14,703 nt of DNA, from the IMG/VR virus record IMGVR_UViG_2529292910_000005. One strand, given 5' to 3'. The DNA is from a virus. Taxonomy: Duplodnaviria > Heunggongvirae > Uroviricota > Caudoviricetes. Of this stretch, positions 4,986 through 14,097 are shown piece after piece. The stretch's first letter is position 1, and every line of letters begins with the position of its first letter. The notes below the pieces were generated by a model. It saw only the letters and a list, made by a program, of their open reading frames with translations, searched no databases and was not told where the DNA came from. A program made the translations under genes and the position numbers.

Positions 4986-5070
4986 AGTCAGAGATAACAA
5001 TCAACTAATACTGTTTTATTGATTTTTGCTTGTAATTGGCGTTCTGGTCTGATTTTTGTGGAGTAAGTTG

Positions 5071-5454
5071 ATGCGTGATATTCAGATGGTTCTTGAGCGT
5101 TGGGGAGCGTGGGCGGCTAATAATCATGAAGATGTGACCTGGTCGTCCATTGCCGCCGGTTTTAAGGGATTAATTACTTCAAAAGTAAAATCTCGCCCGC
5201 AATGTTGTGACGATGACGCGATGATCATTTGCGGGTGCATGGCCCGTCTGAAAAAGAACAACAGCGATTTGCACGATTTATTAGTAGATTATTATGTAGT
5301 CGGTATGACATTCATGTCACTGGCAGGTAAGCATTGCTGCTCTGATGGTTATATCGGGAAAAGGTTACAGAAGGCTGAGGGTATAATTGAAGGGATGTTA
5401 ATGGCATTAGATATCCGGTTAGAGATGGATATCGTTGTTAATAACTCTAATTAA
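5071..5454 (+). CDS. quuD: Late-gene antiterminator Q (phage 82/21 type, QuuD-like), 127 aa
   Basis: [62 protein letters not shown]... GGAG at 5059-5062 before ATG 5071. The ORF track's 5056 start is an upstream TTG. Confidence 0.85.
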
Positions 5455-5469
5455 TATGCCAATTGTTTA

Positions 5470-5506
5470 CTAAAAATTATTAAAAATGGGGCGTTGAGAC
5501 GCCCCC
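5470..5506 (-). terminator. Intrinsic terminator on the minus strand, downstream of the porin gene
   Basis: Perfect 7-bp GC-rich stem GGGGCGT / ACGCCCC (5488-5494 / 5499-5505) with loop TGAG. On the minus strand it is followed by ATTTTTAATAATTTTT. Confidence 0.6.
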
Positions 5507-5642
5507 AAAAATAAAGGGTAATATATAACAGAAGGTTTATATAGTTAGAAGCAAGGTTGTGCTCCTAAAGGAAGTGGCTTGAGGGAGCCACTTATATGTT
5601 GGGGAGGCAAAGCCTCCCGCAACATATCTTTTAGTAATCAAA
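5470..5642 (-). ncRNA. ipeX: Structured 3' region of the porin transcript; candidate IpeX-like small RNA
   Basis: Three consecutive hairpins directly after the porin stop codon on the minus strand: about 5594-5627 (ATATGTTGGGGAGGC...GCCTCCCGCAACATAT), 5572-5593 (AAGTGGCT...AGCCACTT), and the terminator at 5488-5505. From memory, IpeX is described as derived from the nmpC 3' region in DLP12. Boundaries here are guesses. Confidence 0.3.
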
Positions 5643-6725
5643 TTAGAACTGGTAAACCATACCTACAGCAACGATATCATCGGTAGCAACGCCAGATGCT
5701 TTCGTGAAATCGCTCTTATCAATCAGGTTGATTTTGTAATCAACAAAAGTGGACATATTTTTGTTGAAGTAATAGGTTGCACCTACATCAATATATTCAA
5801 CCAGGTCCTGATCACCCCACGCACCCAAGTCTTTTCCTTTAGATTGCAGGTAAGCAACGGACGGACGCAGACCGAAGTCGAACTGATATTGTGCAACTAC
5901 TTCGAAGTTTTGTGCTTTGTTGGCAATATGGTTATTACCAAAAACAGTCATGTTCTGGGTTTCAGAATAGGTGGTAGCCAGATAGATGTTGTTCGCATCA
6001 TATTTCAGACCAGCTGCCCATACTTCAGCATTTTGACCAGATGCATTCAGGCTGTTGTTACCGTAGATAACCTGATTATTAGTGCGGTCAGATTTAGCAT
6101 AGGTTGCACCTACACCGAATCCTTCATACTCATAAGTAGTGGAGAAACCGAAACCATCACCATTAGCTTCAGTTACGTCAGTGCGGTCATTTTTACCCTG
6201 ATACTGAGCAGCAAAGTTCAGACCATCAACCAGACCAAAGAAGTCATTGTTACGATAAGTTGCAACACCTGTGGTGCGACCAGTCATGAATACATCTGTT
6301 TGGGTCCAGGTATCGCCACCGAATTCTGGCAGAACGTCGGTCCATGCACCAATATCGTATGCTACACCGTAGTTACGGCCATAATCGATGGAGCCGTAGT
6401 CACCGAATTTCAGGCCAGCGAAGGCAAGACGGGTTTTATCTTTGGAGGAACCTTGAGATTCAGCGCGGTTGCCTTTGAATTCATATTCCCACTGACCGAA
6501 ACCAGTCAGTTGATCGTTGATTTGGGTTTCACCTTTGAAGCCAAGACGGGCATAAGTAGTATCACCATCATCTGCATCATTAGAGGAGAAGTAGTGCTTA
6601 GCATTAACTTTCCCGTACAGATCCAGCTTGTTACTGTCTTTATTATAAATTTCAGCTGCCTGAGCAGACATCGCCATCAGTACTGATGCAGCTACAGCAG
6701 AAATTGCCACTGTTAATTTTTTCAT
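5643..6725 (-). CDS. nmpC: OmpC/OmpF-family general porin (NmpC / Lc type), apparently intact, about 360 aa with signal peptide [23 protein letters not shown]
   Basis: ORF 5643..6785; the likely true start is the ATG at 6723-6725 (MKKLTV...) with AAGGG upstream. Porin hallmarks: AEIYNKD mature N-terminus and C-terminal ...VGMVYQF. Unlike K-12 nmpC as I recall it, there is no IS5 interruption here. Confidence 0.9.
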
Positions 6726-7151
6726 CGTGAGCCCTTTTTTTGAACTATTATTAAAAAATGATGTCACTGCGCGATAAATATTCATCTAATCAATGTGATT
6801 ATTTCAAGATGTAAGTTTTGGTTTCTCATTTGATTTGTGAAGTAGATCTCTATTTTTATCTGAACTTTTTCTATCGAATCCTATTCATGGCTCTTGGCTG
6901 AATAAAAATAAATCTATTAGCCAATTTATATTAATGGCTGTTATTTATAAGTGCTCTATAATTTGAAGATTCAATTTAAACCAGCTAAAAATAACGCTGG
7001 AAATTATTTGTTGGTTATTTGTTGAGATTTGCTTATGTATTTGTAGTGGTGTTTTCAATACTCGGTAGCATTCTCGCAAATATCATTTAGTGGTTTACGT
7101 ACGTAAAAAATTGGTTATGCTGTTAAGAGTGGTTACTTCGTCACACAGCTT

Positions 7152-7186
7152 AAACCCGCCGTCGAGCGGGTTTTTCCATTTTTTGA
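7152..7186 (+). terminator. Intrinsic terminator on the plus strand, about 130 nt upstream of the holin gene; candidate tR'-like late terminator
   Basis: Stem AAACCCGC / GCGGGTTT (7152-7159 / 7166-7173), loop CGTCGA, followed by TTCCATTTTTTG. Confidence 0.6.
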
Positions 7187-7312
7187 GTCTCGATATTAGC
7201 TGATAACCCAATACCTGAGTTATTCACTGACTCCGAGTCTGTTACGTTTCTGCTTTTTTGCGATACGTTGTATTCCCTCAATTTACACCCGCTTTGTCTG
7301 CGAGGTGGGGTT

Positions 7313-7528
7313 ATGAAATCCATGGATAAGTTAACAACGGGTGTCGCCTATGGCACCTCAGCAGGTAGTGCCGGTTACTGGTTTTTACAGCTGCTCGATA
7401 AAGTCACGCCCTCACAGTGGGCAGCAATAGGTGTGCTGGGTAGCCTGGTATTTGGCCTGCTGACGTACCTGACAAACCTTTATTTCAAGATTAAAGAAGA
7501 TAAGCGCAAGGCTGCGAGAGGTGAATAA
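7313..7528 (+). CDS. essD: Class II holin (S21-type pinholin) with dual-start motif MKSM, 71 aa
   Basis: [71 protein letters not shown]: two transmembrane domains and a charged C-terminus. GAGGTG before ATG 7313; a second in-frame ATG at codon 4. The ORF-track start at 7268 is a TTG. Confidence 0.9.
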
Positions 7529-8025
7529 TGCCTCCATCATTACGAAAAGCCGTTGCTGCTGCTATTGGTGGCGGAGCAATTGCTATAGCATCAGTGTTAA
7601 TTACTGGCCCAAGTGGTAACGATGGTCTGGAAGGTGTCAGCTACGTACCATACAAAGATATCGTTGGCGTATGGACTGTATGTCACGGACACACCGGAAA
7701 AGACATCATGCTCGGTAAAACGTATACCAAAGCAGAATGCAAAGCACTCTTGAATAAAGACCTTGCCACTGTCGCCAGACAAATTAACCCGTACATCAAA
7801 GTCGATATACCGGAAACAACGCGCGGCGCTCTTTACTCATTCGTTTACAACGTGGGTGCTGGCAATTTCAGAACATCGACGCTTCTTCGCAAAATAAACC
7901 AGGGCGATATCAAAGGCGCATGTGATCAGCTACGTCGCTGGACATATGCTGGCGGTAAGCAATGGAAAGGTCTCATGACTCGTCGTGAGATTGAGCGTGA
8001 AATCTGTTTGTGGGGTCAGCAATGA
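7528..8025 (+). CDS. rrrD: SAR (signal-anchor-release) endolysin, lysozyme family, 165 aa
   Basis: N-terminal Gly/Ala-rich weakly hydrophobic segment ([20 protein letters not shown]) followed by a T4-lysozyme-like catalytic region (...[24 protein letters not shown]...). Start overlaps the holin stop. Confidence 0.9.
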
Positions 8026-8483
8026 ACAGAGTAACCGCGATTATCTCCGCTCTGGTTATCTGCATCATCGTCTACCTGTCATGGGCTGTTAATCATTACC
8101 GTGATAACGCCATTACCTACAAAGCCCAGCGCGACAAAAATGCCAGAGAACTGAAGCTGGCGAACGCGGCAATTACTGACATGCAGATGCGTCAGCGTGA
8201 TGTTGCTGCGCTCGATGCAAAATACACGAAGGAGTTAGCTGATGCGAAAGCTGAAAATGATGCTCTGCGTGATGATGTTGCCGCTGGTCGTCGTCGGTTG
8301 CACATCAAAGCAGTCTGTCAGTCAGTGCGTGAAGCCACCACCGCCTCCGGCGTGGATAATGCAGCCTCCCCCCGACTGGCAGACACCGCTGAACGGGATT
8401 ATTTCACCCTCAGAGAGAGGCTGATCACTATGCAAAAACAACTGGAAGGAACCCAGAAGTATATTAATGAGCAGTGCAGATAG
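8022..8483 (+). CDS. rzpD: Rz i-spanin (inner-membrane spanin subunit), 153 aa
   Basis: [23 protein letters not shown]... has an N-terminal transmembrane domain and a coiled-coil-like periplasmic part ending ...YINEQCR. Matches lambda Rz as I recall it. ATG 8022 overlaps the endolysin stop. Confidence 0.85.
8242..8424 (+). CDS. rzoD: Rz1 o-spanin lipoprotein, embedded in the +1 frame of Rz, 60 aa
   Basis: [60 protein letters not shown]: lipobox V-V-G-C and proline-rich mature part. Entirely inside the Rz gene. Confidence 0.8.
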
Positions 8484-11294: not shown

Positions 11295-12330
11295 CAGGCT
11301 GCGGCATTTTGTCCGCGCCGGGCTTCGCTCACTGTTCAGGCCGGAGCCACAGACCGCCGTTGAATGGGCGGATGCTAATTACTATCTCCCGAAAGAATCC
11401 GCATACCAGGAAGGGCGCTGGGAAACACTGCCCTTTCAGCGGGCCATCATGAATGCGATGGGCAGCGACTACATCCGCGAGGTGAATGTGGTGAAGTCTG
11501 CCCGTGTTGGTTATTCCAAAATGCTGTTGGGTGTTTATGCCTACTTCATAGAGCATAAGCAGCGCAACACACTTATCTGGTTGCCGACGGATGGTGATGC
11601 CGAGAACTTTATGAAAACCCACGTTGAGCCGACCATCCGCGATATTCCGTTGCTGCTGGCGCTGGCTCCGTGGTATGGCAAAAAGCACCGGGATAACACG
11701 CTCACCATGAAGCGTTTTTCCAATGGTCGTGGCTTCTGGTGCCTGGGCGGTAAAGCGGCAAAAAACTACCGTGAAAAGTCGGTGGATGTGGCGGGTTATG
11801 ATGAACTTGCTGCCTTTGATGAGGATATTGAACAGGAAGGCTCTCCGACGTTCCTTGGCGACAAACGTATTGAAGGCTCGGTCTGGCCAAAGTCCATCCG
11901 TGGCTCCACCCCCAAAGTGAGAGGCACCTGCCAGATTGAGCGTGCAGCCAGTGAATCCCCGCATTTTATGCGTTTTCATGTTGCCTGTCCGCACTGCGGG
12001 GAGGAGCAGTACCTTAAATTTGGCGATAAAGAGACGTCGTTTGGCCTCAAATGGACGCCGGATGATCCCTCCAGCGTGTTTTATCTCTGCGAACATAATG
12101 CCTGCGTCATCCGCCAGCAGGAACTGGACTTCACTGATGCCCGTTATATCTGCGAAAAGACCGGGATCTGGACCCGTGATGGCATTCTCTGGTTTTCGTC
12201 ATCCGGTGAAGAGATTGAGCCGCCGGACAGCGTGACCTTTCACATCTGGACGGCGTACAGCCCGTTCACCACCTGGGTGCAGATTGTCAAAGACTGGATG
12301 AAAACGAAAGGGGATACCTTCTGCCCGTAA
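11269..12330 (+). pseudogene. A: Terminase large subunit gpA, N-terminal about 349 codons only (lambda gpA is 641 aa); truncated at a deletion junction
   Basis: MNISNSQVNRLRHFVRAGLRSLFRPEPQTAVEWADANYYLPKESAYQEGRWETLPF... follows lambda gpA up to ...[12 protein letters not shown], then diverges (FCP, stop at 12328-12330). Start overlaps the Nu1 3' end as in lambda. Confidence 0.85.
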
Positions 12331-12331
12331 G

Positions 12332-13516
12332 GTGAATGGTAAGGCGCTTTCAGCGGATATAACACTGACGCCGAAAGATATTGGTACGCTTAACTCAACA
12401 ACAATGTCATTCAGCGGTGGTGCTGGTTGGTTCAAATTAGCAACGGTAACCATGCCACAGGCGAGTTCTGTTGTTTCAATTACGTTGATTGGTGGCGCGG
12501 GATTTAACGTGGGGTCACCTCAACAGGCAGGTATATCTGAACTTGTTTTGCGTGCAGGTAATGGTAATCCGAAGGGGATTACTGGTGCTTTATGGCAGCG
12601 CACATCGACAGGGTTTACAAATTTTGCCTGGGTCAATACATCTGGTGATACTTACGATATTTACGTTGCAATCGGAAATTATGCGACTGGTGTAAATATT
12701 CAATGGGATTATACCAGTAATGCCAGCGTGACGATTCATACGTCACCAGCATATTCTGCTAATAAGCCGGAAGGGTTAACGGACGGTACAGTTTATTCAC
12801 TCTATACGCCATCAGAGCAGTTTTATCCGCCTGGCGCACCAATCCCGTGGCCATCAGATACCGTTCCGTCTGGCTATGCCCTGATGCAGGGGCAGACTTT
12901 TGACAAATCTGCATACCCGAAACTTGCAGCCGCTTATCCGTCAGCCGTGATCCCTGATATGCGTGGCTGGACGATTAAGGGCAAACCCGCCAGTGGTCGT
13001 GCCGTATTGTCTCAGGAACAGGACGGCATTAAATCGCACACCCACAGCGCCAGCGCATCCAGTACGGATTTGGGGACGAAAAACACATCGTCGTTTGATT
13101 ACGGAACCAAATCCACGAATAACACCGGGGCGCATACCCATAGTATTAGCGGGACTGCAAATAGTGCCGGTGCGCACCAACACAAGAGTTCCGGTGCATT
13201 TGGTGGCACGAACACGAGCATTTTCCCTAATGGTTATACCGCGATTTCAAATCTAAGCGCGGGGATTATGAGCACAACAAGCGGTAGTGGCCAGACTCGT
13301 AATGCAGGGAAGACATCATCAGATGGTGCTCATACCCACTCGCTGTCCGGCACTGCTGCAAGCGCAGGCGCACATGCACATACTGTCGGTATTGGTGCTC
13401 ATACGCACTCCGTTGCGATTGGCTCACACGGACACACCATCACCGTTAACGCTGCTGGTAACGCGGAAAACACCGTCAAAAACATCGCATTTAACTATAT
13501 TGTGAGGCTTGCATAA
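12332..13516 (+). pseudogene. stf: Side tail fibre protein, C-terminal portion only (394 codons open), with repeated His-x-His boxes; 5' end removed by the same deletion
   Basis: Open frame begins one nucleotide after the gpA-remnant stop with no native start context (GTG at 12332). Content is fibre-like (Ser/Thr/Gly/Asn-rich; repeated GAHTHS / GAHQHK / GAHAHT / GSHGHT motifs at about 13030-13450). Followed immediately by tfa. Confidence 0.75.
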
Positions 13517-14097
13517 TGGCATTCAGAATGAGTGAACAACCACGGACCATAAAAATTTATAATCTGCTGGCCGGAACTAATGAATTTATTGGTGAAGGTG
13601 ATGCATATATTCCGCCTCATACAGGTCTGCCAGCAAACAGTACCGATATTGCACCGCCAGATATTCCGGCTGGCTTCGTGGCTGTTTTCAACAGTGATGA
13701 GTCATCGTGGCATCTTGTTGAAGACCATCGGGGTAAAACAGTTTATGACGTGGCATCAGGGGACGCGTTATTTATTTCTGAACTCGGCTCATTACCGGAA
13801 AATGTTACCTGGTTATCCCCGGAAGGGGAGTTTCAGAAGTGGAACGGCACAGCCTGGGTGAAGGATACGGAAGCAGAAAAACTGTTCCGGATCCGGGAGG
13901 TGGAAGAAACAAAAAACAGCCTGATGCAGGTAGCCAGTGAGCATATAGCGCCGCTTCAGGATGCTGTGGATCTGGAAATCGCAACGGAGGAAGAAACCTT
14001 GTTGCTGGAAGCCTGGAAAAAGTATCGGGTATTGCTGAACCGTGTTGATACGTCAACTGCACAGGATATTGAATGGCCAGTAGCACCTATAGGGTAA
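13516..14097 (+). CDS. tfa: Tail fibre assembly protein (Tfa chaperone), 193 aa
   Basis: [59 protein letters not shown]... ATG 13516 overlaps the fibre stop (TAATG). Typical Tfa size and position. Confidence 0.8.

Follow-up and report, generated by a model that had tools for sequence, protein, structure and literature searches.

An intact porin gene with an IpeX-type 3′ region between quuD and a late promoter homologue in a DLP12-type prophage remnant

The closest described counterparts of the locus considered here are the porin gene nmpC of the DLP12 (qsr′) prophage of Escherichia coli K-12 and the gene lc of phage PA-2. These represent the same gene in the same place and in the same orientation, between the late antiterminator gene Q and the lysis genes, and the PA-2 record of 1986 (J02580.1) already shows lc opposite to the R and Rz genes. 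The RNA termed IpeX comes from the same locus and has nearly the same sequence as the element described below, with no structural difference (Castillo-Keller, Vuong and Misra, 2006). In a later account, IpeX is a 167-nt RNA of DLP12 that forms part of the porin transcript and is released from it by processing (PMC12197685). Secondary accounts also report that it is made from the porin promoter and that it lowers OmpC and OmpF.

With respect to the late-gene switch, the nearest relative is the PR′–tR′ cassette of phage 933W and of the Sakai prophages Sp5 and Sp15, which is the source of StxS RNA and whose Q is ∼80% identical to QuuD of the present locus. The −35 element, spacer, −10 element, start region and first hairpin terminator of the 933W/Sp5 cassette are homologous to those found here. 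The layouts differ. In 933W, PR′ overlaps the end of a 144-amino-acid Q, whereas the present locus encodes a Q of 127 amino acids, and the cargo puts 1.64 kb between this gene and the promoter homologue. Stx phages carry their cargo (tRNAs, stx) downstream of PR′, where it is co-transcribed with the late genes; nmpC, unlike the late-operon cargo stx, is found ahead of PR′ and on the other strand. The Q21 system involves the same protein family as QuuD (PF06530), and the same mechanism is expected. Q loads at a binding element beside a sigma-dependent pause, and terminators are then read through. The binding element of Q21 is a direct repeat with two 8-bp subsites, whereas the candidate in the present locus is a conserved inverted repeat.

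The best explanation of the locus, to which a probability of about 0.85 is assigned, is that positions ∼5433–7085 represent lysogenic-conversion cargo (a ‘moron’) of a DLP12/PA-2-type prophage, inserted between quuD and its late promoter PR′. The cargo would be a self-contained leftward unit consisting of the nmpC regulatory region, the porin gene, a structured 3′ untranslated region (IpeX) and its own terminator.

Prophage context and the porin gene

The window, which denotes the whole stretch of 14,703 nucleotides that was analysed, is a remnant of a DLP12-type lambdoid prophage and comes from an E. coli other than K-12. The 2.6 kb portion at positions 5000–7600 is found as a 100% identical stretch in many E. 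coli chromosomes and is covered over at least 80% of its length in 2,393 of 5,426 complete E. coli genomes. Phage records match this portion as well: there are 36 at 92–99% identity and at least 80% coverage, among them 434B, ev243 and mEp332. In E. coli A14, which has the identical stretch, the RefSeq annotation gives the order ybcN, ninE, ybcO, rusA, ylcG, quuD, the porin gene on the opposite strand, essD, rrrD and rzpD. This is followed by bor, ybcV, ybcW, ylcI, nohD and a truncated terminase gene that is fused to a tail-fibre fragment. In the left part a fragment of recT is joined to one of ren; the fusion indicates that the region encoding N, cI, cro, O and P is missing, and the annotation of the identical stretch in A14 displays none of these genes. 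As the prophage is a remnant without N, cI, cro, O and P and with a truncated terminase, the porin module now behaves as a host gene.

The gene quuD (5071–5454, plus strand) encodes a Q protein of 127 amino acids, an antiterminator for the late genes that belongs to the Q21/Q933W family. Its product matches Pfam family PF06530 with an E-value of 3.5e-53 and is 78–81% identical to Q of the 933W-type Stx phages. Against the Q21 structures 6P18 and 6JNX the E-value is 8e-7, from only a 32-bit match over 80 residues. The lysis cassette (7313–8483, plus strand) consists of essD (7313–7528), rrrD (7528–8025) and rzpD (8022–8483), with rzoD (8242–8424, plus strand) embedded in it. The assignment comes from the open reading frame list, RefSeq and Pfam, the Pfam matches being to P21 holin, Phage_lysozyme and Phage_lysis.

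The porin gene nmpC, annotated as ‘porin OmpC/OmpD’, is found at 5643–6725 on the minus strand and encodes a general porin of 360 amino acids with a signal peptide. A sequence-only reading of the window had proposed an intact antisense porin between Q and the lysis cassette, and both the open reading frames and the RefSeq annotation of A14 confirm these coordinates. That reading also described the gene as uninterrupted, unlike that of K-12, and the comparison bears this out. In K-12 MG1655 an IS5 element is found in nmpC 58 nt ahead of the stop codon, whereas the copy in the window is a single open reading frame without IS5, as in most E. coli sampled. The nmpC gene of the sequenced isolate of phage 434B is also interrupted by IS5, at the same distance from the stop codon. 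Among E. coli matches sampled at even intervals, the porin is annotated as intact almost always, and the K-12 lineage is the exception.

The translated sequence of nmpC aligns with Pfam Porin_1 over positions 1–337 of 337 (E = 3e-153). It ends in VYQF, an aromatic end such as that found in outer-membrane barrels. Over their full length, NmpC and the PA-2 porin Lc are 90% identical; the first 60 residues, which include the signal sequence, are identical, and the residues that differ are clustered in a few stretches. By these features NmpC can be classed as a general porin of the OmpC/OmpF/PhoE family, in the NmpC/Lc/OmpD branch. An open reading frame of 280 amino acids on the plus strand within nmpC (5844–6686) is taken to be a shadow of the porin frame.

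The AT-rich upstream regulatory region of nmpC (6726–7085, minus strand) makes up the right part of the cargo. It displays a CRP-like site, ATTTGTGAAGTAGATCTCTAT, at 6833–6853, which is annotated in the PA-2 lc record J02580.1 and was mapped from there onto the window. A candidate rightward promoter of the sigma-E type is also found in this region (6742–6774, plus strand). The motif, read from the sequence beside a probable start at ∼6774, consists of GAACTA at 6742–6747, 16 nt and TCACT at 6764–6768. One report, which follows Rueggeberg 2015 with respect to RpoE control, states that its DLP12 promoter amplicon extends from −121 to +650 (PMC7918800). The forward primer of this amplicon starts at window position 6653 and places +1 near 6774, and the reverse primer places it at ∼6788; from this we infer a sigma-E-type start near 6774. 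According to the literature, a rightward sigma-E-type promoter feeds the lysis genes too.

The structured 3′ region

The 3′ untranslated region of nmpC (5481–5647, minus strand) comprises ∼165–167 nt from the stop codon to the U-tract, the ends being predicted ones. The minus strand of 5455–5645 folds at −69.2 kcal/mol. Dinucleotide shuffles of the same stretch average −35.5 kcal/mol (z = −8.6), and none of 200 shuffles folds as well. A terminator scan of the minus strand detects a terminator at 5505–5482 that consists of GGGGCGUCUCAACGCCCC followed by AUUUUU, with the stem at 5488–5505 and the U-run at 5482–5486. Other local helices of the predicted fold are found at 5594–5627, 5572–5593 and 5545–5568, and a weak helix of A-U pairs only is at 5522–5543, all on the minus strand. 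The region had been read as three hairpins ending in a U-tract terminator. The strong structure and the terminator stand, but the predicted fold contains five local helices.

The suggestion of an IpeX-type element agrees with the comparison to described copies, as an alignment of 191 nt gives 97.4% identity of the 3′ region with K-12, with PA-2 lc and with phage 434B. Of 5,426 complete E. coli genomes, 2,510 carry the stretch, which is also present in PA-2 lc. By this similarity the element is identified as the IpeX locus, directly 3′ of the nmpC stop codon in a DLP12/PA-2-type prophage. The gene ipeX is not listed in the MG1655 RefSeq annotation, and the locus was therefore matched by sequence. 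The predicted distance of 165–167 nt from the stop codon to the U-tract fits the reported length of 167 nt. Covariation in favour of the fold was sought in eight variants, in which the changes fall mostly in loops or create G-U pairs; the stretch, with a mean column identity of 96%, is too conserved to provide such support.

Two other candidates were considered and set aside. A 9-bp inverted repeat that brackets the IpeX element might have marked the border of a mobile element; this repeat is imperfect in K-12 and in PA-2. The prophage small RNA svsR was considered as a relative of IpeX and is unrelated, based on comparison with the paper that describes it.

The late promoter homologue and the slot behind Q

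A homologue of PR′, with a promoter of the sigma-70 type, is found at 7094–7128 on the plus strand. It displays a −35 element, TTTACG (7094–7099), a 16-nt spacer and a −10 element, TATGCT (7116–7121), and alignment with Sp5 predicts a start at A7128. The initial transcribed region (7128–7148, plus strand) has the conserved sequence AGTGGTTACTTCGTCACACAG. A first intrinsic terminator of the tR′ type, proximal to PR′, was detected by terminator scan at 7152–7180 on the plus strand, with the stem at 7152–7173 and a T-run that extends to ∼7180. Two elements might be recognized by QuuD. An inverted repeat, TTTACGTACGTAAA (7094–7107; TTTACG-N2-CGTAAA), spans the −35 element and part of the spacer and is a candidate Q-binding element; a conserved block that begins with AGTGGTTAC, at +1 to +21 of the PR′ transcript, is a candidate Q-binding or pause element. 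A sub-threshold Rfam match to Trp_leader at 7057–7179 (E = 0.5) is regarded as a chance hit on the PR′ terminator.

The assignment is based on homology. The stretch 7093–7175 is 77–78% identical to that directly after Q in 933W and in Sakai Sp5, and the 933W record annotates the homologous stretch as putative pR′ and tR′. The TTTACG-16 nt-TATGCT of the window aligns with the TTTACG-16 nt-TATCAT of Sp5 and 933W. In Sp5, the Stx2a prophage of Sakai, the PR′ start has been mapped by dRNA-seq, and the transcript of 258 nt is cut by RNase E in a GU/AUU motif at +173 (PMC7547250). If the Sp5 start is placed 7 nt after TATCAT, +173 falls between GU and AUU and +258 is the last U of the terminator; the published coordinates are both offset by the same 142 nt relative to the current RefSeq record. 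The Sp5 transcript extends to a second terminator, which is absent from the window along with the 3′ part of StxS. As a transcript of 258 nt implies that polymerase passes the first hairpin at least sometimes, the hairpin at 7152–7180 may be leaky. The start of PR′, the efficiency of the terminator and the ends of IpeX are predictions.

Instead of following Q directly, the PR′ homologue begins 1,640 nt beyond the stop codon of Q. The sequence-only reading had offered two placements for the late promoter, and the one at 7000–7150, with Q 1.6 kb away, is that which agrees with the only homologue of the PR′ block, at 7093–7180 next to essD. The block is single-copy in the window, with its sole match at 7093–7136. 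Since the promoter is displaced from Q, the cassette, split by cargo, represents a variant of layout and not a different system.

The two junctions of the cargo can be placed by comparison. In C-terminal alignments the Q variants agree up to residue 120 (LEMD, ∼5430–5433) and diverge beyond it, which places the left junction there. A porin-less relative in E. coli/Shigella matches the window to ∼5432 and again from ∼7070–7085, and thus shows both junctions. The insertion between them, ∼1.64 kb in length (∼5433–7085), comprises IpeX, nmpC and the nmpC regulatory region. In phage PhiR40_1 the slot that lies between Q and PR′ is occupied by another leftward gene, beyond which the same PR′ block is found. 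No full PR′ block lies within 3 kb of Q in phage 1H12, whose Q is 84% identical; only a homologue of the −35, spacer and −10 is found, 1.9 kb downstream of Q, with a different transcribed region.

The slot was also surveyed more broadly. A scan of viral contigs with Q gave 80 loci, all with identical Q and hence no diversity, and genome contigs were used instead. An nhmmer profile of the PR′ block, built from three copies, was run on Q loci in these contigs with one genome per species. The 64 loci come from Citrobacter, Pantoea, Yersinia, Xenorhabdus, Photorhabdus, Proteus, Providencia, Erwinia and others, and in 47 of them the profile detects a PR′ block that lies downstream of the Q homologue and in the same orientation. 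Of these 47, 36 have a block that begins at −20 to +40 nt relative to the Q stop codon, and in the other 11 it is displaced from Q by 132–2,848 nt. Nine displaced loci outside E. coli were examined and have unrelated cargo, except for one (132 nt) without an open reading frame. Leftward contents of the slot include open reading frames of unknown function, DUF6731 and NYN-domain proteins (in Citrobacter, Xenorhabdus, Buttiauxella and others), and rightward open reading frames are found in Yersinia (with a Bro-N domain), Izhakiella and Erwinia. The −35, −10 and start region are conserved among the PR′ blocks. In 40 of 45 distinct blocks, a hairpin that begins at +22 to +49 is followed by a U-rich tail with at least 4 U in 7 nt; the stem of this hairpin varies between genera yet stays self-complementary. 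A conserved promoter followed by a varying self-complementary hairpin is the signature of a Q21-type Q cassette.

If the cargo reading is correct, RNA polymerase would start near position 7128 and halt at the 7152–7180 terminator unless QuuD is loaded, and QuuD-loaded polymerase would then read into essD-rrrD-rzpD. In the lysogen the porin mRNA would be made from its own promoter, and its 3′ untranslated region would be released as IpeX, which, according to the literature, lowers OmpC and OmpF. With PR′ situated beyond the porin gene, Q-modified polymerase should not cross nmpC. A distance of 1.64 kb between quuD and the site of action of its product would be nothing unusual, as the protein is diffusible.

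What is observed is the slot itself and the variety of genes that it contains. A broader proposal is that the junction of Q and PR′ in prophages of the Q933W family across Enterobacterales represents a recurrent slot for host-facing, mostly leftward cargo that is shielded from late transcription and convergent with Q, and that interference between porin/IpeX and Q ties the conversion gene to the level of the late switch. The IpeX terminator ends ∼27 nt from the Q stop codon, and the 3′ ends of the porin/IpeX and Q transcripts could therefore overlap and interfere. Such an interplay of transcripts is speculative, and the proposal as a whole is judged to be quite improbable.

Alternative readings and significance

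The most likely alternative concerns transcription from the early side; it adds to the cargo reading and does not replace it. Read-through beyond the Q message could still yield antisense transcripts of nmpC, which would then be early ones and not Q-dependent late ones. In lambda, N-antiterminated pR transcription continues past Q. By analogy, N-modified polymerase might disregard the terminators beyond Q and collide with porin transcription during lytic growth of intact relatives, and functional phages do carry the same porin module. On the plus strand, the sole terminator-like feature after Q is the hairpin at 5594–5627 followed by CUUUUAG, which has a weak U-tract and is not called by the terminator scan. 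The early region with N, cI, cro, O and P is deleted in the window, however, and N-modified transcription is thus impossible here. Antisense transcription of nmpC from this source is regarded as possible, with the odds somewhat against it.

The 3′ element might alternatively be only the 3′ untranslated region and terminator of nmpC, which would stabilize and terminate the porin mRNA without a native regulatory role, the effect of IpeX then being one of overexpression. The conservation of the 191-nt stretch, 92–100%, does not exceed that of the genes on either side, so that no extra constraint is visible. No Rfam family matches the element, either at the gathering score in a search of the window or at E-values up to 10 in a search of 5000–7600; the lack of a match does not argue against its identity as IpeX. 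In one account, IpeX was found as a multicopy suppressor that acts without clear or simple complementarity to ompC (PMC12197685), which makes its effect at native levels uncertain, and work on clinical isolates reports that OmpC levels are not explained by ipeX levels. Against a passive role, the five helices over ∼165 nt far exceed what a terminator needs, and reviews and citations of the primary paper describe IpeX as a repressor of ompC and ompF that is linked to Hfq. Lysogeny by PA-2 is said to lower OmpC, which also counts against a passive 3′ untranslated region. A purely passive element is considered unlikely.

The weakest alternative, a late promoter directly after quuD (5455–5640) from which antisense crossing of the porin would couple its shut-off to late expression, follows the canonical layout of Q cassettes (lambda, 82, 933W), agrees with the adjacency of PR′ and Q in 36 of 47 related loci and could draw on the highly structured plus strand of 5455–5660 (z = −5.7), but it is extremely improbable, as 5455–5640 has neither a match to the PR′ block of QuuD's Q family nor a sigma-70-like site in the promoter scan, the sole copy of the block is at 7093–7136, the Q homology that breaks at residue 120 resumes at ∼7070–7090 directly at this block, and the plus-strand structure is simply the complement of the IpeX hairpins. 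For the idea of an antisense crossing of the porin gene by Q-modified polymerase, put forward in the sequence-only reading, 5455–5640 offers no promoter-like sequence of the QuuD family. With Q-modified polymerase starting beyond the porin, a coupling of porin shut-off to late transcription is unsupported.

Under the preferred reading of nmpC and IpeX as cargo between quuD and PR′, much of the locus is already known, since nmpC and its IpeX tail were described from 1985 to 2006 (IpeX in 2006). What is added is small: homology places PR′, and a slot for cargo between Q and PR′ recurs. The finding matters little beyond correct annotation, of a module that is nevertheless present in nearly half of sequenced E. 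coli. Placing PR′ at 7094–7128 provides a guide for studies of the DLP12 lysis genes and of the biofilm and vesicle phenotypes. As the porin is intact in most E. coli, K-12 is exceptional with respect to the biology of NmpC and IpeX. The presence of unrelated genes between Q and its promoter in several genera represents a modest addition to what is known of prophage cargo sites.

The annotated distal CRP site and the late promoter

The 1986 GenBank record of lc, the nmpC counterpart in phage PA-2, annotates a distal CRP-binding site that is exactly AGTGGTTACTTCGTCACACAG (window 7128-7148). This sequence coincides with positions +1 to +21 of the transcript predicted to start at the late promoter PR' (7094-7128). 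The block is a GTG-N10-CAC inverted repeat in which internal changes are paired, and it is kept beside the antiterminator gene Q in relatives of other genera that have no porin. The annotated site is probably part of the late-promoter cassette and does not belong to porin regulation.

A second inverted repeat, TTTACG-N2-CGTAAA (7094-7107), spans the PR' -35 and spacer. Different palindromes, e.g., TTGTGTAATTACAA, AACGCGTACGC and ATCGCGGTCCGC, take its place where Q is only 45-55% identical (loci compared: L135, L136, L138, L139, L140, L142 and L149). The exchange of palindromes where Q diverges fits a candidate Q-binding element that changes along with Q, as judged from sequence.

Q homologues are also found on short metagenomic contigs binned as Candidatus Nanosynbacter and Bacillus sp. 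(L132 and L142), and L142 has the PR' block as well. Both are probably mis-binned fragments of enterobacterial prophages.

Terminators and gene order in related phages

Only the first hairpin downstream of PR' is present in the window (tR', 7152-7180), whereas Sakai prophage Sp5 has both a first hairpin (L005 869-896) and a second terminator (L005 1075-1103). The first hairpin of Sp5 (+24 to +51, with 7 U in a row) has the appearance of a strong terminator, but the published Sp5 PR' transcript is 258 nt long, with its 3' end at the second terminator. A leaky first hairpin would explain this, as would a ∼50 nt product that went undetected.

Phage 1H12, whose Q is 84% identical, displays a terminator resembling the second tR' of Sp5 ∼100 nt past Q (L007 3477-3500). 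This is followed by a leftward lipocalin gene, a rightward ybgA-like gene and then a PR'-like promoter (L007 5256-5283) consisting of TTTACA, a 16 nt spacer and TATGAT. The transcribed region is unrelated.

Prophage decay and a repeat around IpeX

Only a remnant of the prophage is left in the window. At ∼1773, recT survives as a fragment fused straight to a ren fragment, and the N, cI, cro, O and P genes are absent. Truncation has left the large terminase gene fused to a tail-fibre fragment at ∼12314-12318, so that all head genes and most tail genes are missing. A full-length match to Rfam IS009 (218 bits; gathering score 117) is found at 13859-14057 on the plus strand, within a tail-fibre-assembly open reading frame (13516-14097).

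A perfect 9 bp inverted repeat, TTACTAAAA and TTTTAGTAA (5467-5475 and 5629-5637), flanks IpeX, the structured 3' untranslated region of nmpC. As a possible mobile-element border it was rejected; it is probably due to chance, because K-12 and PA-2 carry only imperfect versions.

A sigma-E-like motif facing the lysis genes

A sigma-E-like promoter candidate, identified as a sequence motif (GAACTA, 16 nt, TCACT), lies on the plus strand at 6742-6774. It precedes the nmpC start codon by 17-43 nt and is directed away from nmpC, toward the lysis genes. PMC7918800 describes a DLP12 promoter fragment whose -121 end agrees with this placement. Transcription starting at this motif would run antisense to the nmpC 5' region and would traverse PR' and the PR' terminator.
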